A DNA stretch of 64,000 bases from a virus. Taxonomy: Duplodnaviria > Caudoviricetes. Within the stretch, counting starts at the first letter, position 1. Each line of letters opens with the position of its first letter. The DNA lies in the IMG/VR virus record IMGVR_UViG_3300029288_000161, positions 6,937-70,936 of that record, one strand, 5' to 3'. The translations under genes and the position numbers were made by a program. This document shows positions 10,155 to 62,585 of this stretch, piece after piece. The notes beneath the pieces were generated by a model. The model did no database searches, was not told the DNA's origin, and saw nothing but the letters and a program-made list of their open reading frames with translations.

Positions 10155-12671
10155 TTACTGCCTGTTAGATTTTTCTTCCTGTACTGACTCAATTTCGTGC
10201 GAAATTTCACGGGAATCAAGTTTAATATTAAAATTCTTTGTGACCTCTGTCTGAGTTGATTTGTCAAAAACAACCGGTTGATTACTTTCAACAGATGCAG
10301 CCTGAACCTTGGTGATGGATTGTCCTATTGGACTGCTCATTTGTTTTTGGGTAATTGTCTGGTTATCGTTTACATTTATTTCTCCCTCATCACCTAGGCC
10401 CAGAAACTTGAGAGTCCCTTTAATGGGAGCCATAAGTGTTTCCCACAACCCGGCGAGCCATGATTTGAATGATGCCCATGCGCTGGCGATACCCTCCTTT
10501 AAATTATTTATAAGGGTAACTCCCCAATTAAACATCCTCTTTGGTATGCCGGTAAGCCAGTCCCAAAATTGACCGACTTTCTCTTTTATCCATCCCCAGG
10601 TTTGTTGCCATATTTCACCGAACCAGTCCATTATTTTTGACCAGTTTTTAACGATTGCTATAATCCCGATGATTGCTCCGATAATAAGAAGGATGGGCCA
10701 AGTTGCAGCGATTACCGAAATAGCCAAGGCAATGAAAGCCGGTACAAGTGTTGCCATAATCACAATACCGACAATTTTCCCCACTTCGGCCCACTTAGAA
10801 ACATCACTGGTATTTTTACCGATGTTGATCCCCCACTTTGCAAGTGTATCCATGAGGAATGTAAAAGCTGCTTTAATGGCATTGACAACAGGTTTGATAA
10901 CAGCGTTGTAAGCTGCTTTAATTCCCTGCCCTACACCTTTGAAAAATTCTTTTACCCGGACGATCCAAGTGCCAATGGAAACAACTAAATCGAGTATGCC
11001 CAATTTCTCAAGGGCATCATGCATCTGCTGTGTCATGCTGAAACCTTCCGAATTTGCAGACTTCCAAATCGCACCTATTCCCATCAGGATGCCTCCGAGC
11101 CTTTGCAGGAAACCAAGGAATCCCGTCGCCGGTTCCTTTGTCCCGTTGAGTACATCTTTGAATGCCTGTATGGATTTGACGAATAATAAAACAACCCCGG
11201 TGACCGCCAGAAGAATCCATCCAATCGGACCCATAGTAATCATAGTTTGAATGGCTTGTTTTGCAAGTGCCTTCATTCCCCCGATTAAACCTTTATTAGC
11301 GAACGCTGCAGCGATCTGTGCCTGCCCCATTTGTGCAAAAGCCAGGGCAGCTTTACCAGCCATAAATCTTGCAGCGTTCATTGCTACAACTAAGCCTCCC
11401 ACTCCAACGAGTAATACAGCCACTGCTCCGGTAAGTTTTACCACAAACTTCCCGAATGGACTTGAAACAAATCTGCCAAAGATATCGAGTACCCGAATTA
11501 AGAAATTGCCCAATTTCTCTACCACAGGTGCAAAAGCATCTCCAACCCTGGTAATCATAATATCAAAACGTTTCTTTAGTTTTTCCATCACCGCAGCAAG
11601 ATTGTTATTCTTTGCAATAAACTCATTCATGATAGAATCAGTATTTGTCAAAGCCTGTCCGGATTCCTGAACTCTTTGTCTCATTAAATCGGTGTTCGAA
11701 GCAAGTTTCAGGAAAACCTCCGATACCCTTGCCCCATCCAGACCAAGCCCGTCGAGAAGTTTTGACATTTGTGTTGCAGTTGGAGCCAGTTGTTTTGCAC
11801 CCACAGCAACCTTGCCCAAGGCTTCAACAATATTGGTATTGACCAGGTGTTCAAATTCAGCAGTACTCATTCCTGCCACCTTTGCAAATTCTTTTGTATG
11901 GGAAGCCATGCGCTGCAATGCGATGGGGAAGTTTGATCCTGCCACTTCAGCGTTCACTCCCATTTCCAAAAGGGCAGTCGAAACACCAAATATATCAGCC
12001 GATGTCATTCCAAGGGATTGTCCAAGCCCTGCCATACGTCCCACAACACTCGTGATTTCACCTTCAGCGGCCGCAGAGTTTGCTCCCATGAAATTAAGTA
12101 CGTTACCTATTTTAAGCAGATCGGCAGAAATATTATCGGATTTAATATCGAGCAGGACATTCCTCATCTTGGTTAAATCCACCGCCAATTGTTCAGGGCT
12201 TGCAAATTGGTCACCAAGGGCCACGTTCAATTTATCCATGCTCTCGGTAAATCCTGCGACATCCTTTTGAGCCACGCCCATTGTCCCTCCGGCCCTTGCA
12301 ATCTCAAGTAAATTTTTAACCGATGTCCTGGTATCGATGGATTCCAGATCAACCCGTAATTCCTGAAGGGCTTTACCGGTTATACCGGTTGTTTTTGTAA
12401 CGTCGGAAAGGGCATCCGACATTTGGATGCTCTTGTTTATACCAATAGCAATCGGAGCAAGCAGGGCCGCACCGACTGCCATCGATGCAAACCCTAACTT
12501 CATTCGATTCATGGATTTTTCTATATTGGCAGAGGCTTTGGCAGTAATGCCATCCATTTGGCTGAATTTAGATGATATCTTATCCGCAGTGGATGAGAAT
12601 TCATCTTTAAGGGAATAGATAATTCCTATTCCCAATCCGCCTCCTGTATTACCTCCTCCGAATATTGCCAT
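10155..12671 (-). CDS. Tape measure protein (838 aa)
   Basis: Ala/Gly-rich helical sequence, TP901-like core (MSDALSDVTKTTG...), hydrophobic and Trp-periodic C-terminal repeats. Confidence 0.92.
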   Translation of the reverse strand: MAIFGGGNTGGGLGIGIIYSLKDEFSSTADKISSKFSQMDGITAKASANIEKSMNRMKLGFASMAVGAALLAPIAIGINKSIQMSDALSDVTKTTGITGKALQELRVDLESIDTRTSVKNLLEIARAGGTMGVAQKDVAGFTESMDKLNVALGDQFASPEQLAVDLTKMRNVLLDIKSDNISADLLKIGNVLNFMGANSAAAEGEITSVVGRMAGLGQSLGMTSADIFGVSTALLEMGVNAEVAGSNFPIALQRMASHTKEFAKVAGMSTAEFEHLVNTNIVEALGKVAVGAKQLAPTATQMSKLLDGLGLDGARVSEVFLKLASNTDLMRQRVQESGQALTNTDSIMNEFIAKNNNLAAVMEKLKKRFDIMITRVGDAFAPVVEKLGNFLIRVLDIFGRFVSSPFGKFVVKLTGAVAVLLVGVGGLVVAMNAARFMAGKAALAFAQMGQAQIAAAFANKGLIGGMKALAKQAIQTMITMGPIGWILLAVTGVVLLFVKSIQAFKDVLNGTKEPATGFLGFLQRLGGILMGIGAIWKSANSEGFSMTQQMHDALEKLGILDLVVSIGTWIVRVKEFFKGVGQGIKAAYNAVIKPVVNAIKAAFTFLMDTLAKWGINIGKNTSDVSKWAEVGKIVGIVIMATLVPAFIALAISVIAATWPILLIIGAIIGIIAIVKNWSKIMDWFGEIWQQTWGWIKEKVGQFWDWLTGIPKRMFNWGVTLINNLKEGIASAWASFKSWLAGLWETLMAPIKGTLKFLGLGDEGEINVNDNQTITQKQMSSPIGQSITKVQAASVESNQPVVFDKSTQTEVTKNFNIKLDSREISHEIESVQEEKSNRQ

Positions 12672-12915
12672 TTCCTTGTCTTTTAGATGATATCTTTCTT
12701 ATCTCTGCTTCCTCTGCCTTTTTTTGAGTAAGCATCCTTTCATGCATGCGATCTATTTTACTATAATCCCATTCGTAGAACTCCGCTTCGCTCACCCGAA
12801 GCCCCCCGTAGTTCAAATCAAACCAGACACTTTCAAGATCGGCACACAGTCCAACTTCGCATATATCCTTTTCAGGGGGATTAAGGTCTATATTGCCAAG
12901 CTGGAGAAGAAAAAA
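12649..12915 (-). CDS. -1 frameshift extension of the tail assembly chaperone (G-T type product)
   Basis: Slippery heptamer T TTT TTC at 12915-12909, seven codons before the TAG. The -1 frame is open for about 88 codons (LLQLGNIDLN...ESVWFDLNYGGLRVSEAEFYEWDYSKIDRMHERMLTQKKAEEAE...RRR) and overlaps the tape measure start. Confidence 0.75.
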   Translation of the reverse strand, partial: FFLLQLGNIDLNPPEKDICEVGLCADLESVWFDLNYGGLRVSEAEFYEWDYSKIDRMHERMLTQKKAEEAEIRKISSKRQGNGNIRRR

Positions 12916-13772
12916 GCCGGTGTCGACACCAAGTCAACCTGTGACTGTATTGAATTATCATTCTTATATTGAACCACAACAAATGAATCTACATTCCCTT
13001 CCTTATGCATGATATCTTTTCGCAATGCCTCAATGTCATTCAGTGAAAGCTCATCGAGGGGGACTTTCTGCAGCGGTTTACCTTCCAGTTCCGGATTATG
13101 AAATTGGGGACGTCTCATTTCAATTTGTGTGTGGCTGGTAATACTTGCAACCTGTATGATCTTGGAATATTTGATTTCTTCCTCGCCATCGAGCATTTTC
13201 CAGATAACATCAACCTTACATTCGGGAAGATTAGTTTTTTGAATTGCAAGTTCCATTATTTCAGAATAGTCAGTAAACATCACAGGGAAAGTCTCTTTTA
13301 ATGCTTCCTTTTCTTCGTCCTCTGTGAGATTACCGGTAATACCATTTAATTCTTTATAATCCTGAACCATTTTTTCCCGGACCCAGAAATATGGACGTAC
13401 CGGAAAATCATCCTTTTGAAAATCGACATTATAACGTTGTTTTAAACGTTTCCCTCCCTGAGTGGGGAATTCATAATCAAAAATGAATTGCCTTTCATTA
13501 TTGTTTGAAATATTGCGTAATTCAAACAATAAATGCTTCCTGTCGGCAGAGAGGAGTTTCTTAATGTCCTCTACTTTGAAATCAGTCTTTTCTCCAAGCC
13601 TCTTGAGACAACTAAGTAGCATCTCGTCAATACCTTTACGTCGTTTTGCCTCATCATTGATAGTGATCATCGCCTGATGCTTACCGGATAAACCGGTTAG
13701 TTCAGCTTCAATACCAGACGGAAGTATCGTGGTTCCCGTCTTTTCTACTTTAAAAAAACTTCCCATATTCAT
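12888..13772 (-). CDS. Tail assembly chaperone / hub assembly protein
   Basis: Between the tube region and tape measure; ends in the FFF slippery motif. Start moved to ATG 13772 (or 13766) because the longer ORF-track start runs through a terminator. Confidence 0.75.
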   Translation of the reverse strand: MNMGSFFKVEKTGTTILPSGIEAELTGLSGKHQAMITINDEAKRRKGIDEMLLSCLKRLGEKTDFKVEDIKKLLSADRKHLLFELRNISNNNERQFIFDYEFPTQGGKRLKQRYNVDFQKDDFPVRPYFWVREKMVQDYKELNGITGNLTEDEEKEALKETFPVMFTDYSEIMELAIQKTNLPECKVDVIWKMLDGEEEIKYSKIIQVASITSHTQIEMRRPQFHNPELEGKPLQKVPLDELSLNDIEALRKDIMHKEGNVDSFVVVQYKNDNSIQSQVDLVSTPAFFFSSLAI

Positions 13773-13819
13773 TATTTTTTTAATGGTTAATAAACTTAAA
13801 AATACGAAAAATAAGGAAC

Positions 13820-13850
13820 AAAAAAATCCCCCGGGGCCAACCGAGGGATT
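13820..13850 (-). terminator. Intrinsic terminator
   Basis: Stem ATCCCTCGG / CCGGGGGAT (9 bp, one G-U), 6-nt loop, then T7. Confidence 0.85.
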
Positions 13851-13951
13851 CAAAGCAACAATAAACCTGCCATGAGACATGGTGGGCTTAATCGTGTCAG
13901 TCCTTTATCTTCCGGACTGTAGTATTTTTATGGGTGAATTTGCTTTCAAAA
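13820..13951 (-). ncRNA. Candidate structured sRNA with an arm antisense to the repeated leader
   Basis: Manual fold: P1 AAAGCAA/UUGCUUU, P2 CAGUCC/GGACUG, P3 UAAGCC-CA-CCAUG/CAUGG-CA-GGUUUA, then the terminator. 13851-13876 is the reverse complement of the AAAGCAACAATAA...GCCATGA leaders. Confidence 0.55.
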
Positions 13952-14134
13952 TTATAATTTATTTTCGTTATTGTCGCCTTTATCGCTTTCCTGTTCAAAA
14001 AAACTATTATTCCCGTTTATATTAATATACCCATATTTGGCAAACCACTCATCGGGTGTGAAACATTCCCCTGCCCCATTAATTGGCAGGTTCGTTTTGA
14101 GCCGGTACCGGGTTTTCTGATTCTTTCGTTTCAT
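13952..14134 (-). CDS. Hypothetical protein (60 aa, start uncertain)
   Basis: Closed ORF ending directly before the structured RNA; overlaps the upstream gene by 56 nt. Confidence 0.4.
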   Translation of the reverse strand: MKRKNQKTRYRLKTNLPINGAGECFTPDEWFAKYGYININGNNSFFEQESDKGDNNENKL

Positions 14135-14306
14135 TCTCTAATTCATTGATTCTTTTCAGAACAAGTTCATAACAATAAATCTCTGCTTCCTGAAGGTATC
14201 CGGTTCTTGCTTTTAATTCCTCAAAGTGATCCTTATGCCGTTTCAACATTTGCATATCGCATTCGGGAACCAGTACTGCGTATGTATCCATTATTCTTGC
14301 ATCCAT
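14079..14306 (-). CDS. Hypothetical protein (75 aa)
   Basis: Follows the lipoprotein gene by 10 nt; no motif recognised. Confidence 0.6.
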   Translation of the reverse strand: MDARIMDTYAVLVPECDMQMLKRHKDHFEELKARTGYLQEAEIYCYELVLKRINELENETKESENPVPAQNEPAN

Positions 14307-14316
14307 GACTTTAGTT

Positions 14317-14796
14317 TTAATTATAAAGGAAAAGTTCTAATGTACCCCAACTGCCACCATAACTAACATCAAAAGATATTCCATCCTCATACTTGAACGT
14401 GCCATTTGTTACCTGTAATTCACCGGCTGAATTATAACTACCAAAAATAGTTCCAATAACAATCCCGTTATCAAAATCCACATAATCAATTCTGATGCTG
14501 TCAAAATCACCGGTACCTCCGACGTGGGTATTGGTTTCAGCATTCAAAGAAGTTGCAAAAAATCTTAATTTGCTATTGGTAATCTCAACTCTATTATTCC
14601 CTACGCCAATCAATCCACGTTCGGTATCAAAAACATAGGGAAAATCAAAACTGTAATTGATTACACCAATTTCTGAAGGTTCCTGAGCCACGTAAATAGT
14701 ATCATAATTGTTGATAATTTCTGGCTCCATGCTTTCTTTTTCACAACCCATAAGGGCAAGAGAAAGAATTACTGTTAATAAGAATAAATTTTTCAT
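14317..14796 (-). CDS. Lipoprotein, possible superinfection-exclusion moron
   Basis: MKNLFLLTVILSLALMG-C lipobox followed by acidic EKESMEPE; preceded by the AAAGCAAC leader. Confidence 0.8.
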   Translation of the reverse strand: MKNLFLLTVILSLALMGCEKESMEPEIINNYDTIYVAQEPSEIGVINYSFDFPYVFDTERGLIGVGNNRVEITNSKLRFFATSLNAETNTHVGGTGDFDSIRIDYVDFDNGIVIGTIFGSYNSAGELQVTNGTFKYEDGISFDVSYGGSWGTLELFLYN

Positions 14797-14807
14797 TTTG
14801 TTGCTTT

Positions 14808-14921
14808 TTAATTAATAAATATTGTTAAGTCTATGTAAAATTCAATTGTTTCATTGGTTGTTAATAACCTGTGAAAACCGGTTATTATAGTCTTTTGGTA
14901 TTGTAATTCTATGAATTCCAT
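14808..14921 (-). CDS. Small ORF (37 aa, MEFIELQYQK...), first gene of the moron
   Basis: Translated by hand; preceded by the full promoter-leader cassette. Confidence 0.45.
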   Translation of the reverse strand: MEFIELQYQKTIITGFHRLLTTNETIEFYIDLTIFIN

Positions 14922-14965
14922 CTTTTTGGCTTTATTTATTGTTGCTTTTTATTCGTATAACGAAT

Positions 14966-14996
14966 CTAAGTTATAAAAGGTTTCAAGATTATCAAA
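14966..14996 (-). promoter_or_regulatory. Bacteroidota primary-sigma-type promoter (moron)
   Basis: TTTG-N19-TAACTTAG; same extended cassette as 32088, 34272 and 47680. Confidence 0.75.
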
Positions 14997-15010
14997 TGTT
15001 TTTTAATCTG

Positions 15011-15089
15011 TTGTAAGTTTACAATGACTTTTAGTTCGTCAATATCTTGATAATTAATTCATTGATTTTTTTAATTGTAAGTTTACAAT
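15011..15089. promoter_or_regulatory. Pair of palindromic operator-like sites
   Basis: TTGTAA-GT-TTACAA at 15011-15024 and 15075-15088, identical, 64 bp apart. Confidence 0.55.
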
Positions 15090-15122
15090 AAAAAGAAAAT
15101 CCCTGCTTTTAAGGGCAGGGAT
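15090..15122 (-). terminator. Intrinsic terminator after the tube operon
   Basis: ATCCCTGC / GCAGGGAT stem followed by TTTCTTTT. Confidence 0.8.
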
Positions 15123-15168
15123 CACACCAAGAGAGTTGTTTCACCACTAAAACAACGAACTTGAGAAG

Positions 15169-15568: not shown

Positions 15569-16012
15569 TTATGCAGGAATAAAATCCTCAACGCTGAAGG
15601 TTACAGTTCTGAGAATATCTGCACTGTTATCTTCACGGGTATCATGCCCGGAATCTTCAATCTTCTTACACCAGATATTCTTCAGGAACCATCTCTGGAT
15701 CGGTGCGCCGACACCGTTTAATTCCACGAGATAACCAATTTTTGTATAGGCAGGCCTTAAACCGGTTCTACCGGATTCGAGCCACGCCCAAATTTCACGA
15801 TCCCCTGTTTCCGCAGGTACAACCTGCTCACACACCAGATCGCCGACCTTCTTCTTTCCGGGTGTTTTTACATCGGGGTTATTACCGGCGGTACCCTGTT
15901 TATGTTCGGTTAATTCAACAGTGGGTTTTGTAACCCCTTGCAAATATGCCTGGTTTACCCCATCTATTTCGAGGGCAAAATCGTAATTTTTTACTGGATT
16001 ATTTACAGCCAT
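15569..16012 (-). CDS. Tail tube protein (T4 gp19-like)
   Basis: 147 aa directly after the sheath; FALEIDGV...KTPGKKKVGDLV...QRWFLKNIWCKKIE. Confidence 0.9.
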   Translation of the reverse strand: MAVNNPVKNYDFALEIDGVNQAYLQGVTKPTVELTEHKQGTAGNNPDVKTPGKKKVGDLVCEQVVPAETGDREIWAWLESGRTGLRPAYTKIGYLVELNGVGAPIQRWFLKNIWCKKIEDSGHDTREDNSADILRTVTFSVEDFIPA

Positions 16013-16023
16013 GACTCAAGTTT

Positions 16024-17970
16024 TTATAATTGATTCAAAATTTGAACATTCAAAATAGTTGCCGAATCAGCCGGGGCAATATCGATGGCGATATATTCGT
16101 TACTTGCAATCGGTTTGAAAGCAAAACGAACCCTGTATTTCCCTGCATCCACTTCTGACTGAGTATTGAAACTCAAATCTTCTGGTGTTTTGGCAAACTG
16201 ATCACCAAGCCAATGCCACCATTTTCCTTCACCGGCAGTGGCTGATTCGTCGCCTTGGATGGCACGGTTTTTAACCAATGTATCGGTGATGAAAGGACGG
16301 ACATTCCTGTAAAGAAGGTTAAACATGATAAAATCATTGGGTCTGAAACTCATTGCTTCAGCGATACCCTTAACCACTCTCGATATGAAAACAACCATAT
16401 CTGCGATGTTATCCTTACTGGTTAGCTTGGTTTTATTAAGCAATAAGGAACGATTTCCCCAAGCGCAGATTTTATAAGTCGGATGTTCAATAATGGCATT
16501 AACACCTGCTTCATAAACCAGGTTAAAAAATGCAACATTGCCCGGTGAACCAAAGTTCAACTTCATACGGTTTATACCAGTTAGTTTTCCACCGAAATCA
16601 CCTGCTGCCGAGTACCATTCACCAAGCATACGATCCATTCTTGCCCTTGCAGCGCAATAATGCCCGATGGCAGTGATTGATTTATCCTTTATATCCGAAT
16701 CATTGGGATCAGTAATCTCAACATCAGTGTACCAAAGTGAAGCATAAAATGTGTCTATTGGCTGATGTGTGAAAGTGCCTGTTCCCATCCGATAATCGTA
16801 TACTCCCTGTGCTGTTAATCCTGCCTGTGTACGTGTGTGCGCCCGCATATCCTGACGTGTGGTTGCATAAGAGGCAAGGTATATGTCAACTTCCGGGATG
16901 GCTTTATTGAAATTCCAGATGCGCATCGAATCAGTAACATCATCGAAAGCATGCCATCCAGCTTTTGATACAGACGAGCCATTGAAATCTGCTGCGACAA
17001 TTGCCGAAACATCCTGCAAGCCTCCTGTTAAAGTAATAGAACCAAGAGGTATCGATCCGTTTATTGCTGAAATTTGAATCCCTGCTTCTTTACCTTTTAA
17101 TTTGCTGTTAAGAGCCGTAACTGCTGCAGCGGATGCATCTGTTTTATTTACATCAAACAAGTCGATTATTAAGTCCGAATCAACTAATTCAACCTTAATA
17201 TCCACATTGGTTGCAATTCCCGATCTCGGTGCAGATGTTGTAATTTTAGTACCATTATAACCGGTTCCGACTGCTTCAGCTTCGAGTTGAAGACTAACTG
17301 CTCCAGCGGTTATACCACCAGCCATATTAATGATATTACCGGTAACAACATCCCCTGCAGTTGTAACAACCACGACAAATCCGTTCGGGGTTGAACCTGA
17401 ACCGGCTGCTGCTGAAATAACAACTTTATTATTAACGGCGGCCGCTGCATAATTTGGTGATGATGCTAATGTTGTTATTTGGGCAGCCACAGCAGTCGCT
17501 GTTGCATTGTTTGATGTCGCCCAATCTACGTCAACATCCATGACTTCGACGCCATTCACTGTAACGGAAGTAACCTTATTGACACCGGCTGATGCGGAGC
17601 CTCCAACTATTTCAAAACTTCCAGTCGCCAGTGTTTCTGCAACCGTCCCAGCTATTGTCCCGGCAGCTTTCGTACCGGCAGCCGTTTCAAGATCGTCTAC
17701 ATCTGTATAATGGAAAGCCCTGGTTACTCTCAGAACCGCACCCCCGTCGAGAGCCGCTTTAGCAATCAAAGGATCGTCTACACCCGAAATGAGTCCACCA
17801 AGTTTCCTTTTAAACTCGTTCCAGTTGCCGATTAAATATTGTTTACCCGGCTCCCCCCTCTTAGTAACCAGTTGAACGCAATTTATCCCTTTCAGGGAAT
17901 TGGCCACGATTATAGAGAGATCGGTAACTGATAGTTTTACGCCGGGTGCGCCTGATAATTCTTGTGCCAT
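16024..17970 (-). CDS. Contractile tail sheath protein
   Basis: N-terminal PGVKLSVTD...TKRGEPGK and C-terminal sheath domain (AGVNAI...AWGNRSL...FRPND...GKYRVRFAFKP..EYI). Confidence 0.93.
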   Translation of the reverse strand: MAQELSGAPGVKLSVTDLSIIVANSLKGINCVQLVTKRGEPGKQYLIGNWNEFKRKLGGLISGVDDPLIAKAALDGGAVLRVTRAFHYTDVDDLETAAGTKAAGTIAGTVAETLATGSFEIVGGSASAGVNKVTSVTVNGVEVMDVDVDWATSNNATATAVAAQITTLASSPNYAAAAVNNKVVISAAAGSGSTPNGFVVVVTTAGDVVTGNIINMAGGITAGAVSLQLEAEAVGTGYNGTKITTSAPRSGIATNVDIKVELVDSDLIIDLFDVNKTDASAAAVTALNSKLKGKEAGIQISAINGSIPLGSITLTGGLQDVSAIVAADFNGSSVSKAGWHAFDDVTDSMRIWNFNKAIPEVDIYLASYATTRQDMRAHTRTQAGLTAQGVYDYRMGTGTFTHQPIDTFYASLWYTDVEITDPNDSDIKDKSITAIGHYCAARARMDRMLGEWYSAAGDFGGKLTGINRMKLNFGSPGNVAFFNLVYEAGVNAIIEHPTYKICAWGNRSLLLNKTKLTSKDNIADMVVFISRVVKGIAEAMSFRPNDFIMFNLLYRNVRPFITDTLVKNRAIQGDESATAGEGKWWHWLGDQFAKTPEDLSFNTQSEVDAGKYRVRFAFKPIASNEYIAIDIAPADSATILNVQILNQL

Positions 17971-31751: not shown

Positions 31752-32048
31752 TTATTCTATTACATAATGAAGTGCATTTTCTTTAGCCCAATCGTCCATT
31801 TTTGCCCAAAGGGTACGGATCATTTTCTTTGCTTCGGTATTCCATTGTGACGGGGTTTTGAAACTCCTGAAATCCAAAGCATCAATATAACCTTTTTCAC
31901 CTTCCACAACATTTAAAACTAATTCATTGTAAGATTCACGGCAACCCCTGCATAAATCCCTTATTTCGTCGGTTGCTTGACTCCAATTTGTTGCGTTATC
32001 CGGAAATTGGTTAATAAAATCGTTAAGTTTTTTGTCTAAATTTTTCAT
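31752..32048 (-). CDS. Hypothetical protein, first gene after a promoter cassette
   Basis: Preceded by the full promoter-leader cassette. Confidence 0.65.
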   Translation of the reverse strand: MKNLDKKLNDFINQFPDNATNWSQATDEIRDLCRGCRESYNELVLNVVEGEKGYIDALDFRSFKTPSQWNTEAKKMIRTLWAKMDDWAKENALHYVIE

Positions 32049-32087
32049 GGCTCTTTGTTATTGTTGCTTTTGTAATGTTTTACGCAT

Positions 32088-33808: not shown

Positions 33809-34234
33809 TTATTTATAGTAATTTCTTTTAATGAATTCTCTGTAAACTAAAGTTGACATTCTTTCTCTCAAATTATCAATATAATCGTTATAGGTAGTTC
33901 CGGTTTCTAAACCATAATAACCTATTAAGTAACTGACAATTTCTTCCCTGACTTTATCTGACATTTGCCTTTCAACAAATAAATACTTTGTTTGAGGGAT
34001 ATCTTCCCGGACATTTGAATATTCATATATATCCTCCATGCCGTTAAAATTACCATATTGATATTGGCTTATTAGCTTTTCAACATCGGAAGTCATCGGC
34101 CCATCTTCATAGCTAACCGAAACTTTATCACCCATTGAATAACTCATGGATTTTACACTGAACATTAAATTTGGGAAATTCTTTTTTAAAATACTTTTAA
34201 TCTCTTTAGCTGCTTTGGATGCGTTCGTTTTCAT
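33809..34234 (-). CDS. LPD29-like (large polyvalent protein-associated domain) protein
   Basis: AAKEIKSILKKNFP..FSVKS..YSMG..VSVSYEDGP...YQYGNFNGMEDIYEY...KYLFVER pattern. Confidence 0.7.
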   Translation of the reverse strand: MKTNASKAAKEIKSILKKNFPNLMFSVKSMSYSMGDKVSVSYEDGPMTSDVEKLISQYQYGNFNGMEDIYEYSNVREDIPQTKYLFVERQMSDKVREEIVSYLIGYYGLETGTTYNDYIDNLRERMSTLVYREFIKRNYYK

Positions 34235-34271
34235 GGCTTTTTATTTATCGTTGCTTTGTTATTTATACGAT

Positions 34272-47300: not shown

Positions 47301-47639
47301 TTAGATTGTTTTACGATTTCTTATCAACTCATTAACAATGTGGATAAAATCATGATCCACCTTTTCATTACAGGCATACCCGCTTGCAACAATATTGCAT
47401 GCGTTTTCCTGTTCGGAGGTTAAATCCTCACCAACCATCTCCAAACAAAAGTCATGCTGTACTTTTGTAGGGATATAACTACCTCCGGCAGTGCGATAAT
47501 CAAATTTAGAAGAAGCCCTGCGCTTTTCTTCTTTCTCACGTTTACGATTATTATATGATTCGGCGAATTCGGAATCATTTTGCATACGTTGGGCAAATTC
47601 CCGGCGTTGCGTTTTTGAAGGTTTCCAACTTTTTCTCAT
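47301..47639 (-). CDS. Hypothetical basic protein, first gene after a promoter cassette
   Basis: Preceded by the full promoter-leader cassette. Confidence 0.7.
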   Translation of the reverse strand: MRKSWKPSKTQRREFAQRMQNDSEFAESYNNRKREKEEKRRASSKFDYRTAGGSYIPTKVQHDFCLEMVGEDLTSEQENACNIVASGYACNEKVDHDFIHIVNELIRNRKTI

Positions 47640-47679
47640 TGTTTTGGCTTTTTATTGTTGCTTTATTGTTTTAACGAAT

Positions 47680-59019: not shown

Positions 59020-59815
59020 TTGAATTATTTTTAATTGTGAGTAATAATTGCTGGACTTGTTTCCTGAGTTTTTCAGTTGAAAGAATATTTTTTTGCCAGA
59101 ATAAATCTGTTTTCAGAAAATGATGTATTTCCCGGAGTTGATCTATCGTTGCCTCTTTATTTTCAATAATTAATCTGATTGCGGGTACCCAATTTTTATA
59201 AACAGCTTTTTCGTGTTTAACAATACTGATACCATTCCTTTCTAAATTACTTTTAATAAGATTCCAAAATTGATATGCGATTAAAGCCGGTTGTTTATCC
59301 TTTTCGGGTATTTCAACCTTTGGAATTAAATTTTTCTTATCGTTATCGTCCGAAATGAAAATTTCGGACATAAGAGTATTATTGATATCAATAACACTGT
59401 CACTTACACTAACAGCGATTGATGCGATTGTCTGCGATTGCACTGTATCGGTTTCCGATCCCATTGTATCGGTATGCGATAACTTGCGATCAGATGCGAT
59501 GGATATACATTCATCAAGATTTAATTCTTTATTTGTGAGCTTTGTATATAAATCCGGATGCCATCTTTTTAAGTTTCCAATTATTCCCCCTTTACTTTTA
59601 TTTTCCTTGGTTAATTCCCATTCTTTTAAATTTCTTTTCAAGGCTTGTTTAATGGGTTCAAATGATATTTGAATGATGAGATCATTAGTCTCTGGATTTT
59701 TGTCATTGACGTATTCTAAAATATGTTTGAATAATTGTCCGGCTTTTTCATCAGGCAGTTTAGAAACCGTATGGATTATATCGGTATAAAGTATAAATGA
59801 TTTTTTACCTTCCAT
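58883..59815 (-). CDS. Replication initiator (DUF6291-like N-terminus)
   Basis: KKSFILYTD...AGQLFKHILEY N-terminus, Ser/Thr/Asp linker carrying iterons, FWQKNILSTEKLRKQ C-terminus. Start moved to ATG 59815 (MEGKKSF). Confidence 0.85.
   Translation of the reverse strand: MEGKKSFILYTDIIHTVSKLPDEKAGQLFKHILEYVNDKNPETNDLIIQISFEPIKQALKRNLKEWELTKENKSKGGIIGNLKRWHPDLYTKLTNKELNLDECISIASDRKLSHTDTMGSETDTVQSQTIASIAVSVSDSVIDINNTLMSEIFISDDNDKKNLIPKVEIPEKDKQPALIAYQFWNLIKSNLERNGISIVKHEKAVYKNWVPAIRLIIENKEATIDQLREIHHFLKTDLFWQKNILSTEKLRKQVQQLLLTIKNNSNGEPGTGSDGKEKSQNNAHRINTKESAREKRRQETTKSHFSTPDD
59411..59500. repeat. Iteron cluster, probable replication origin
   Basis: GCGAT at 59415, 59424, 59434 and 59476, 59486, 59496; TGTATCGGT twice between the two sets. 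Confidence 0.7.
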
Positions 59816-61314: not shown

Positions 61315-62500
61315 CCGGAGCTTTTAACTGCAATTGGTTATCCGCAGGGCCACCCGTTTGAACATTGGCATCAGTGGCATTTTGCACCTGGTCTGATTTT
61401 GGTTTTTCTCCAGTTTCCCCGGCATGATCATCGGGAATAACAGAAGGCTTCCCTGTCTTATCCAAATACATGCCCATGCCTTCGTCCCATCTGAACCCGA
61501 GTTCCTTAACTTTTGCCATAAGAGAACTGCGCAGTTGTTTCTTTACCATTTCGGGGGTATTTTTAACCATTTCTACAAGAGTATCCATTTGAACAGTGTA
61601 TTTCACATCTTTGAGAAGATCCGCGAAGAAAAGACCGTATTTTTCATTTAATGGCTTGCTTAATTGGATACGATAAGTCTGAGACATATCCATGATGGCA
61701 TCTGCAACCGGGTTTAACTCCTCGATCGTTTTTGCTGCAGCGATCTTATCCTGATTATCCTGAACCAGTTTAAGGGCATCCTCCTGCGCTTTTGTCATTT
61801 CATTCATCTTTGCTTTGCAATCGGAAATAATCCGTGCCATGAATGTTGCATATTCCGGATCGCTAAAATTTGGAACCACCTGCTTTTGAATTTGGGCAGA
61901 GTTTTTTCCAACATGGCGATCACATGGGTTAAAATCTATCACCCTTCTATCTCCCTCAGTTTCCATGTAACCCACCATATCCGCCACTCCTTTGATGATG
62001 TCGTAAGAGCCCCCGGTGATCTTCGGTTTCTTTTTTATGGAATCCTTTACATTTTCATCATCATCATGGGCAATGAAAATCAGATCAATCCGCTTGGATT
62101 TCATTTCATTAACAAAAGCATTGAAAACATTCTTCATTGCTCCATAGCCACCAAGGGCCAAAGCCCCATCCTTTTTCGCATTTTTAGGATCGTCCCTGAT
62201 AACCGATTGAGAAACGTAATTGTCCAGCATAGTACCAACGGTATCAAATATCAACGTTTTTATACCAAGCTGCTCAAGCTGCCCGGAACGATGGAATTCA
62301 ACAGCATCCTCCCAAGAGTCCATTTTAAGGGCTTTCTTCCTGCCTATTGCCCTCTGCAATCCGCCGTCGAAGTCCTCTAATAATGGGTTTTCTGCAGTAA
62401 AACTTATGGAAGTTTTACCAATGCCAGGCTCACCGAAAAGCAAAATAATAATCGCTTCAATGAGTAGAGCCTCATCTTCACTAATGATCTTGTACGCCAT
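61262..62500 (-). CDS. AAA ATPase, Sak4-like recombinase (AAA_24)
   Basis: FGEPGIGKTS, EDFDGG, IFDTVG, FIAHD, ADMVGYM; C-terminal extension. Confidence 0.85.
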   Translation of the reverse strand: MAYKIISEDEALLIEAIIILLFGEPGIGKTSISFTAENPLLEDFDGGLQRAIGRKKALKMDSWEDAVEFHRSGQLEQLGIKTLIFDTVGTMLDNYVSQSVIRDDPKNAKKDGALALGGYGAMKNVFNAFVNEMKSKRIDLIFIAHDDDENVKDSIKKKPKITGGSYDIIKGVADMVGYMETEGDRRVIDFNPCDRHVGKNSAQIQKQVVPNFSDPEYATFMARIISDCKAKMNEMTKAQEDALKLVQDNQDKIAAAKTIEELNPVADAIMDMSQTYRIQLSKPLNEKYGLFFADLLKDVKYTVQMDTLVEMVKNTPEMVKKQLRSSLMAKVKELGFRWDEGMGMYLDKTGKPSVIPDDHAGETGEKPKSDQVQNATDANVQTGGPADNQLQLKAPDAKKTGENQTIKEPKIF

Positions 62501-62539: not shown

Positions 62540-62585
62540 CAAATATAGATATTCTTTTTTGACTATCATCAAAATAGTTTTGATG
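62540..62585 (-). promoter_or_regulatory. Promoter with palindromic operator upstream of the Sak4-like gene
   Basis: TTTG-N22-TATATTTG; CATCAAAA-TAG-TTTTGATG at 62567-62585; GCAACAATAA leader. Confidence 0.7.

Follow-up and report, generated by a model that had tools for sequence, protein, structure and literature searches.

Why should a phage genome in which the minus strand carries every credible gene hold, on its plus strand (nt 13852–13864), an exact inverted copy of the leader word AAAGCAACAATAA? The window, that is the whole 64-kb stretch of DNA analysed here, comprises bases 6937–70936 of an IMG/VR virus record of 70,936 bases in total, and as its genes are all on the minus strand the RNA transcribed across this site bears the complement of the leader, abutting an intrinsic terminator. 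A preliminary description of the locus saw in it a candidate antisense RNA of 132 nt, a possible master regulator complementary to the shared leader and start codon of many phage mRNAs. The present analysis suggests that the element would instead be the 3′-UTR end-piece of a self-contained accessory cassette (moron), not a free-standing gene, and that this moron entered the tail genes at the junction of the tail-tube region with the gene for the tail chaperone. The features are listed in Table 1.

Table 1. Features of the cassette, its 3′ module and the dispersed leader copies (window coordinates, nt).
Feature	Position	Strand	Remarks
Tail sheath gene	16024–17970	minus	
Tail tube gene	15569–16012	minus	
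121-aa gene	between tail tube and T1	minus	
Terminator T1	15098–15123	minus	closes upstream tail genes, insulates cassette
Cassette promoter	14966–14996	minus	Bacteroidetes type (TTTG, 19 nt, TAACTTAG)
Cassette 5′ leader AAAGCAACAAUAAA	14936–14949	minus	predicted cis partner
Cassette cargo	13952–14921	minus	four genes
Cargo gene, 37 aa	14808–14921	minus	
Short leader copy AAAGCAACAAAAU	14795–14807	minus	immediately 5′ of lipoprotein start codon
Cargo lipoprotein, 159 aa	14317–14796	minus	
Cargo gene, 75 aa	14079–14306	minus	
Cargo gene, 60 aa	13952–14134	minus	
−7-like box TAATTTTG	13947–13954	minus	overlaps stop codon of 60-aa gene
AAAGCAA	13940–13946	minus	predicted to pair with UUGCUU, closing a window-specific three-way junction
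Extra hairpin CAGUCC...GGACUG	13898–13919	minus	window and L006 only
Hairpin 1	13858–13895	minus	leader-like 5′ arm (ACGAUUAAGCC..CCAUG) pairs with 5′ two-thirds of anti-leader arm
Full anti-leader arm UCAUGGCAGGUUUAUUGUUGCUUUG	13851–13875	minus	GGC part conserved, CAU (anti-AUG) part not
Anti-leader core UUUAUUGUUGCUU	13853–13865	minus	exact complement of leader AAGCAACAAUAAA; invariant
Linker UGCUUUG	13851–13857	minus	between hairpin 1 and terminator; single-stranded in local fold
Intrinsic terminator T2	about 13820–13851	minus	10–11 bp stem, loop UUGGCC, U7
294-aa gene	12888–13772	minus	conserved, directly downstream of T2
Leader copy before gene at 32048	32058–32070	minus	
Leader copy before gene at 34234	34245–34257	minus	one G replacing A
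Leader copy before gene at 47639	47652–47664	minus	shorter copy before 47139

The cassette is ordered T1, promoter, cargo and T2, flanked on one side by the tube and 121-aa genes and on the other by the chaperone and tape-measure genes. It has the attributes of a moron, namely a promoter and terminator of its own, variable cargo, and a site between conserved structural genes. Pfam and PHROGs assigned none of the cargo to a family. The lipoprotein is fast-evolving; its signal peptide and the motif GCEKES(M/L)EPE are kept, and the rest is 29% identical to the homolog of a relative (L008; E = 2e-14). Beyond T2, the promoter of the 294-aa gene overlaps the U-run of the terminator, and the next gene in minus-strand order encodes the tape-measure protein. 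The 294-aa protein returned zero Pfam or PHROG matches. A slippery T_TTT_TTC lies just before the end of its gene (window 12672–12935, minus strand), and the −1 frame is open from this site through the 216-nt ‘gap’ to the tape-measure start; as this is the classic G/GT frameshift arrangement, the protein is probably the tail assembly chaperone. A 330-aa ORF that starts at nt 13880 and reads through the arm is an artefact: the homologs (17/17) are 292–306 aa in length, which places the true start at nt 13772 (294 aa) and makes the arm non-coding.

The complementarity of the arm to the leader far exceeds chance and is unique on the transcribed strand. The exact 13-mer is present in four copies in the window (three minus, one plus), against 0.02 expected from shuffled sequences. 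For the plus-strand copy the first-order Markov expectation is 0.0025 for the 13-mer and 0.0009 for the 14-mer, so that the earlier estimate of below 1 in 100 was conservative. When a consensus of the leaders was scanned over the whole transcribed strand, the arm was the lone outlier at −28.4 kcal/mol, with the runner-up site at −17.0 kcal/mol and a mean of −6.1 (sd 2.5). The complement is 13–21 bases long and lies just before the terminator of a swappable cassette. The element belongs to no curated RNA family: Rfam at gathering thresholds gave no match in the whole window, a relaxed Rfam search of nt 13700–14100 returned only fstAT (20 bits vs 72 required, E = 0.4), and the window contains no tRNA or tmRNA.

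The exact leader precedes the minus-strand genes at 14921, 32048 and 47639, and near copies are found at 34234, 47139, 33756 and 14796. Pair counts were re-derived by hand from the leader sequences. Those quoted previously, as well as the sequence of the arm (13875–13851), proved to be correct or slightly conservative. The arm can form 13 + 7 pairs with the leader of 32048, 15 (one G-U) + 7 with that of 34234, 14 + 4 with those of both 47639 and 14921, 10 + 7 with 47139, and 9 + 7 with 33756. The 10–11 bp given earlier for two further leaders are 10 at 62500 and slightly more, 12, at 59815. The lipoprotein gene at 14796 (10 pairs) is an additional target. In the replication region, the minus-strand promoters at 62573, 59890 and 56806 are of the full TTTG/TAnnTTTG form, and the first two carry truncated leader words (GCAACAAUAA and AGCAACAAUAAA), which indicates that the word is graded among the host-type promoters of the phage and is not a feature of one operon.

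Relatives were found by searching with the two proteins encoded next to the cassette (294 and 121 aa), and arm-bearing cassettes occur in five lineages. The window groups with L006 (97% identity in the 294-aa protein; cassette genes of 37, 159, 75 and 60 aa). The other four are L007 (77%, 294-aa protein; 165 and 72 aa), L008/L009 (77%, 294-aa protein; 61, 83, 163 and 90 aa), L047/L048 (65%, 121-aa protein; 48, 216, 67 and 67 aa) and L051 (66%, 121-aa protein; 60, 66 and 68 aa), the identities given for the adjacent 294-aa protein thus spanning 77–97%. Small genes, related only in part, make up a mosaic cargo that differs among the five, and both ends are constant in 5/5 lineages: T1, promoter and AAGCAACAATAAA..GCC on the left, and GGC(A/T)GG(C)TTTATTGTTGCTT on the right, with the T2 hairpin following within 0–4 nt. 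Comparison of the window with L007 shows the module as an isolated island: 67 nt, 82% identical, set among genes that are not homologous. The 13-mers of leader and anti-leader are both invariant in all five lineages, while in the same five sequences the neighbouring gene is invariant at 60% of positions and at 26% of third codon positions (that is, variable at 40% of columns and 74% of third codon positions). All five cassette-bearing lineages keep both leader and anti-leader. Co-variation of arm and leaders, proposed earlier as a check, is absent since neither ever varies, and for the same reason RNA pairing and protein-DNA recognition are indistinguishable by this comparison.

The arm-bearing lineages all belong to one clade. 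A second clade (L010, L011 and L046; 65–69% identical) has a homologous two-hairpin module in which only the linker, GUUGCGU, represents the arm, and no leader-bearing cassette lies upstream of it. The chaperone gene follows immediately after the module in L011 and L046, and in L010 a 190-aa gene without such a leader comes next. As the arm-bearing lineages form a single clade, the contrast with these three may reflect one evolutionary event.

Local folds of all lineages share the same layout of a hairpin, a single-stranded (U)GUUGCUU (the form of the linker in relatives) and a terminator. The 3′ strand of hairpin 1 is the 5′ part of the arm, and its 5′ strand is leader-like but differs from lineage to lineage; analogous hairpins are built from other 5′ arms in L007, L008 and L047. 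The arm region has undergone one substitution, GGCAGG to GGCUGG, and on the opposite strand of hairpin 1 a compensatory change has turned CCUCGCC into CCGAGCC. The terminator reported to follow the arm is present (13851–13824 plus U7) and has the properties of an intrinsic terminator: a GC-rich stem-loop, a U run and compensatory stem changes, with double changes in 4/9 pairs across lineages. An anti-terminator role was rejected, as inspection showed that the leader:arm pairing stops short of the T2 stem.

Other parts of the preliminary description turned out to be local to the window and L006 or to lack support in the form proposed. The three-way junction is indeed predicted there, AAAGCAA (13946–13940) pairing with UUGCUU (z = −3.8), but is confined to the window and L006; AAAGCAA is missing at the equivalent place in L007, L008, L047 and L051. 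The anti-start-codon block CAUGGC is not maintained in the lineages of L008, L047 and L051. The available space does not favour a discrete 132-nt RNA: in three lineages (L008, L047 and L051) the final cassette gene runs right up to the module, its stop codon marking the module start, and with no room left for a promoter a dedicated one cannot be a general feature. One would be possible only in window/L006 and in L007. The −7-like box of the window, TAATTTTG, has no −33 TTTG partner, and an RNA started from it would begin too far downstream to include AAAGCAA. L007 has a similar box (TATCTTTG) 22 nt upstream of the arm, and the other three lineages have none. What holds of the master antisense reading is a unique complementarity, far beyond chance, with an invariant 13-nt core that adjoins a terminator, together with the cofolding energies given below; a promoter for the discrete small RNA, the junction and the anti-AUG block are not conserved.

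The window plus strand reads as a textbook leader followed by GCCATGA, and the word might accordingly be taken for a working or relic plus-strand leader and start codon (with a 16-aa or 48-aa ORF), or for a chance match. All of these are very improbable. No Bacteroidetes-type promoter or −7 box is found on the plus strand within nt 13600–14200, in agreement with the earlier account, and the expected place for one is occupied by the GC-rich T2 stem. The 16-aa ORF does exist, but relatives have no ATG at this point (GCCATA in L007, GCCTGA in L008, GCCGGA in L047 and GCCAGA in L051), and a plus-strand small ORF was rejected on these two grounds. Thirteen invariant bases across five lineages argue against a decaying relic, and the expectation of 0.0025 argues against chance.

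The favoured reading, held tentatively and at somewhat short of an even chance, is that the 3′-UTR anti-leader first closes its own moron mRNA in an icaR- or hok-like manner. The 5′ bracket would consist of T1, the host-type promoter and the leader AAGCAACAAUAAA..GCC, and the 3′ bracket of T2 preceded by a weak hairpin and by the exact complement UUUAUUGUUGCUU, with GGC lying 5′ of the latter. Once the cassette has been fully transcribed, the 3′ anti-leader would pair with the leader of the same mRNA, giving a duplex of 13–14 bp plus 3–5 more pairs at 5–30 nt upstream of the first start codon. Bacteroidota ribosomes do not rely on Shine-Dalgarno pairing and need an unstructured A-rich leader, so this duplex should reduce re-initiation on finished transcripts, change their decay, or both. 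Two reports describe leader secondary structure as tuning translation in Bacteroidetes (PMC6847099, PMC3155529). We infer that the pairing occurs in cells and has an effect of this kind.

A 3′-UTR motif complementary to the initiation region of the same transcript, as in icaR, is present in 5/5 lineages. In predicted folds of the full-length cassette mRNAs (734–1347 nt; five lineages) the leader:anti-leader duplex is part of every minimum-energy structure, with mean pair probabilities of 0.78–0.98, values that indicate feasibility only, as a perfect 13-mer arises in any energy-based fold. According to these models the intramolecular leader can outcompete hairpin 1 for the arm. Closure of its own mRNA is ranked first because the arm always co-occurs with a leader-bearing cassette, because it sits in the 3′ UTR of that cassette and because a partner within one molecule has the advantage of local concentration. 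Wherever the element occurs it brackets a cassette with the same 5′ leader, which makes intramolecular pairing at least as likely as a ‘master’ role in trans. Against it, the duplex ends 13–17 nt before the first AUG in the window and L008/L051, at the edge of the ribosome footprint. The best matches of the window arm, GCCAUGA included, are moreover to other genes (34234 and 32048) and not to the leader of the cassette itself, which favours a trans role in the window.

Still within the whole mRNA, or after processing to a fragment, the same 3′ end could also bind the remaining mRNAs of the leader class in trans. An alternative that puts this first has the 3′ end of the cassette transcript acting as a small RNA, made by processing of the mRNA or from a weak internal promoter, that blocks translation of the shared-leader mRNAs as a class-wide feedback; this we consider unlikely. 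For an 81-nt 3′ fragment, net cofolding with the nine named leaders gave −6 to −15 kcal/mol, and seven of the nine surpassed even the best (−8.9) of 73 control gene starts, for which the mean was −3.7 (sd 2.0), so that action in trans appears feasible also. Four of the genes (32048, 34234, 47139 and 33756) have the start context GCCAUGA, which is matched by the window arm and absent from the leader of its own cassette. Small RNAs derived from 3′ UTRs are usually built in the manner seen here, with a hairpin, a single-stranded stretch (GUUGCUU), a terminator and a U-tail, and the window and L007 each have a −7-like box upstream of the arm. On the other hand, neither those boxes nor the anti-AUG part are conserved, three lineages leave no room for a promoter, and full-length arms are found only where a leader-bearing cassette is directly upstream. 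The arm is also partly sequestered. Viewed as a candidate small-RNA seed it has an invariant core, and GUUGCUU is single-stranded locally, but hairpin 1 holds part of the arm and the cis leader takes it in the full-mRNA fold. To our knowledge, the host phylum, Bacteroidota, lacks Hfq, which also counts against action in trans. In its broadest form, in which the released 3′ end of the moron transcript would switch off the whole host-promoter (early/accessory) class through a 13-nt word, replication-gene leaders included, the proposal seems rather doubtful.

Invariance of both copies of the word is also what a protein site would produce. The 13-bp word could be bound, in either orientation, by a phage or host protein acting as a repressor or roadblock at +10 to +23 of the leader-class promoters, the inverted copy serving as an extra operator, or it could mark a conserved recombination boundary for cassette exchange. 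Conservation at the promoters reaches past the sigma boxes, with TGAAAC always present in the spacer, and an invariant 24-nt block before T1 holds a dyad, GTTGTTT/AAACAAC, that resembles GCAACAA. Homology between the shuffled cassettes breaks off at the leader and the arm, and PeSL promoter-terminator cassettes mediate shuffling of this sort (PMC2839356). A DNA site nonetheless has a low probability. The word is non-palindromic, no candidate binding protein was found, and the hairpin partners change while pairing persists. The arm-to-next-promoter distance varies from about 30 to over 75 nt, a different unit follows the module in L007 and L051, and the arm stays within 0–4 nt of the terminator hairpin, all of which is more in keeping with a module that acts as RNA than with a DNA site tied to a promoter. 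As for recombination, PeSL-type exchange needs direct repeats, whereas inverted copies would merely invert the cassette; an invertible segment was rejected, as its orientation is identical in 5/5 lineages. Essential genes would be lost if the other leader copies, which are direct repeats, recombined.

The 24-nt block, GTGGTGAAACAACTCTCTTGGTGT, is situated in the 3′ UTR of the 121-aa gene (window 15160–15124, minus strand) in 5/5 lineages. Its dyad is perfect (GTTGTTT-N8-AAACAAC) and lies just before T1, with a half-site resembling the promoter-spacer word TGAAAC. The block could be a protein operator or an RNA element.

Closure of the moron mRNA by its own 3′ end would probably work most like the 5′-3′ UTR interaction of icaR and the fold-back inhibition of hok-type mRNAs. 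In Staphylococcus aureus icaR, which shares with the present element the pairing (here predicted) of a 3′ UTR with a 5′ UTR, the interaction blocks initiation and makes a substrate for RNase III (PMC3868564). The icaR motif is an anti-Shine-Dalgarno sequence, UCCCCUG, whereas here the target is an SD-less A-rich leader in a Bacteroidota-type phage, the duplex is longer (13–14 bp) and the target word is common to 6–8 other mRNAs. The phage element also brackets a shuffling cassette, and its pairing is a prediction from sequence. In hok/sok-type systems, the 3′ end of the mRNA from a mobile module pairs with its 5′ end, leaving the finished transcript translationally inert. The predicted folds are alike in that the 3′ end of a full-length accessory-module mRNA pairs with its own 5′ end; here, by contrast, there is no sign of a toxin, a Sok-like antisense RNA or 3′ trimming, and the first cassette ORFs differ between lineages.

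If released, the element might rather resemble a 3′-UTR-derived small RNA or the P1 c4 and P4 CI antisense RNAs. The P1/P7 c4, P4 CI and P22 sar RNAs are phage RNAs that pair with short words near ribosome-binding sites of phage mRNAs, c4 and CI at more than one site. They are likewise made from the transcript of their targets or next to them, but each is located upstream of a single operon or antisense to it, and they govern lysogenic immunity; the present element resembles them neither in sequence nor by Rfam, and here up to nine dispersed leaders share the word. In 3′-UTR-derived small RNAs, an example being CisR, which acts on the CTX phage cep mRNA (PMC13250501), the regulatory sequence is placed between a stop codon and the terminator of the mRNA itself, as here. 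In such RNAs, as in the phage element, the terminator hairpin forms the 3′ end of the regulator. The known cases are Hfq-dependent and from Proteobacteria, whereas the host phylum here is, as far as we know, without Hfq and the arm has in addition a cis partner. The PeSL cassettes of T4-type phages also have conserved promoter and terminator motifs flanking shuffled non-essential genes (PMC2839356, PMC4122927). PeSLs, however, are direct promoter and terminator repeats with ends that are not complementary, while here the repeated word is an inverted copy of a transcribed leader, and T1 shows no sequence relationship to T2. In T4, RegA and RegB shut off a whole class of phage mRNAs via a word common to their translation-initiation regions (PMC3014915); they are proteins (a repressor and an endonuclease) and not a complementary RNA.

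Searches for more distant occurrences gave little. A distant DNA search of the phage GenBank collection with nt 12600–15100 gave no match, and scans of IMG/VR with the 294-aa, 159-aa and tape-measure proteins and two arm patterns gave nothing close. The tube protein identified a 95% relative in IMG/VR (L002 = G005), the contig of which stops inside the cassette, before T2. The 29 matches from an arm scan of JGI metagenomes were all unrelated coding sequence without a terminator, and a scan of GTDB genomes for the arm plus the terminator loop gave seven chance matches. In a complete relative of 45% identity (G001; L055:2535-3911), the tail slot is filled by one 458-aa gene, the N-terminus of which shares the GNFNGMEDIYEY region with the leader-class gene of the window at 34234. 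This gene has AGCAACAUG at its start and AUGUUGCU in its 3′ UTR before a terminator, a weaker bracket of 8 nt. As apparent covariation this is suggestive only: the 8-mer is unexceptional genome-wide (37 such matches), and the leader of the gene itself is outside the top duplexes. In a 47% relative (L054:1-2320), the genes for sheath and tube run in the opposite direction to those for chaperone and tape measure, and a divergent promoter region replaces the cassette slot. Irregular GT-rich repeats (GTAAAGTG, GGTGGAGTAATG and similar) make up non-coding stretches of 150–270 nt in L007:5701-5960, L010:1101-1370 and L051:11330-11460, each followed by a terminator, AGCCGGA...TCCGGCT, and then the chaperone gene; the window has none.

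Literature searches, one of which retrieved little of relevance, returned no described case of RNA-based control in Bacteroidota phages, and RNA-based control by phages of this phylum is almost unexplored. As translation in Bacteroidota needs open A-rich leaders, a complementary RNA should be an unusually effective brake, and the arm probably folds back on, or binds, leaders and so damps translation. If the bracket works as proposed, it would be a portable expression harness: whatever cargo occupied the slot would be given a promoter and leader together with an inbuilt limiter, and a terminator to protect the tail genes; a harness of this kind, if real, would explain the fixed ends around shuffled genes. 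It would also represent a simple, testable design for the control of gene expression in Bacteroidota. Should the trans reading hold, the phage would have a single-word handle on a whole class of its genes, and a class-wide small RNA would be the RNA counterpart of T4 RegA/RegB in a phylum without Shine-Dalgarno initiation or any known Hfq.
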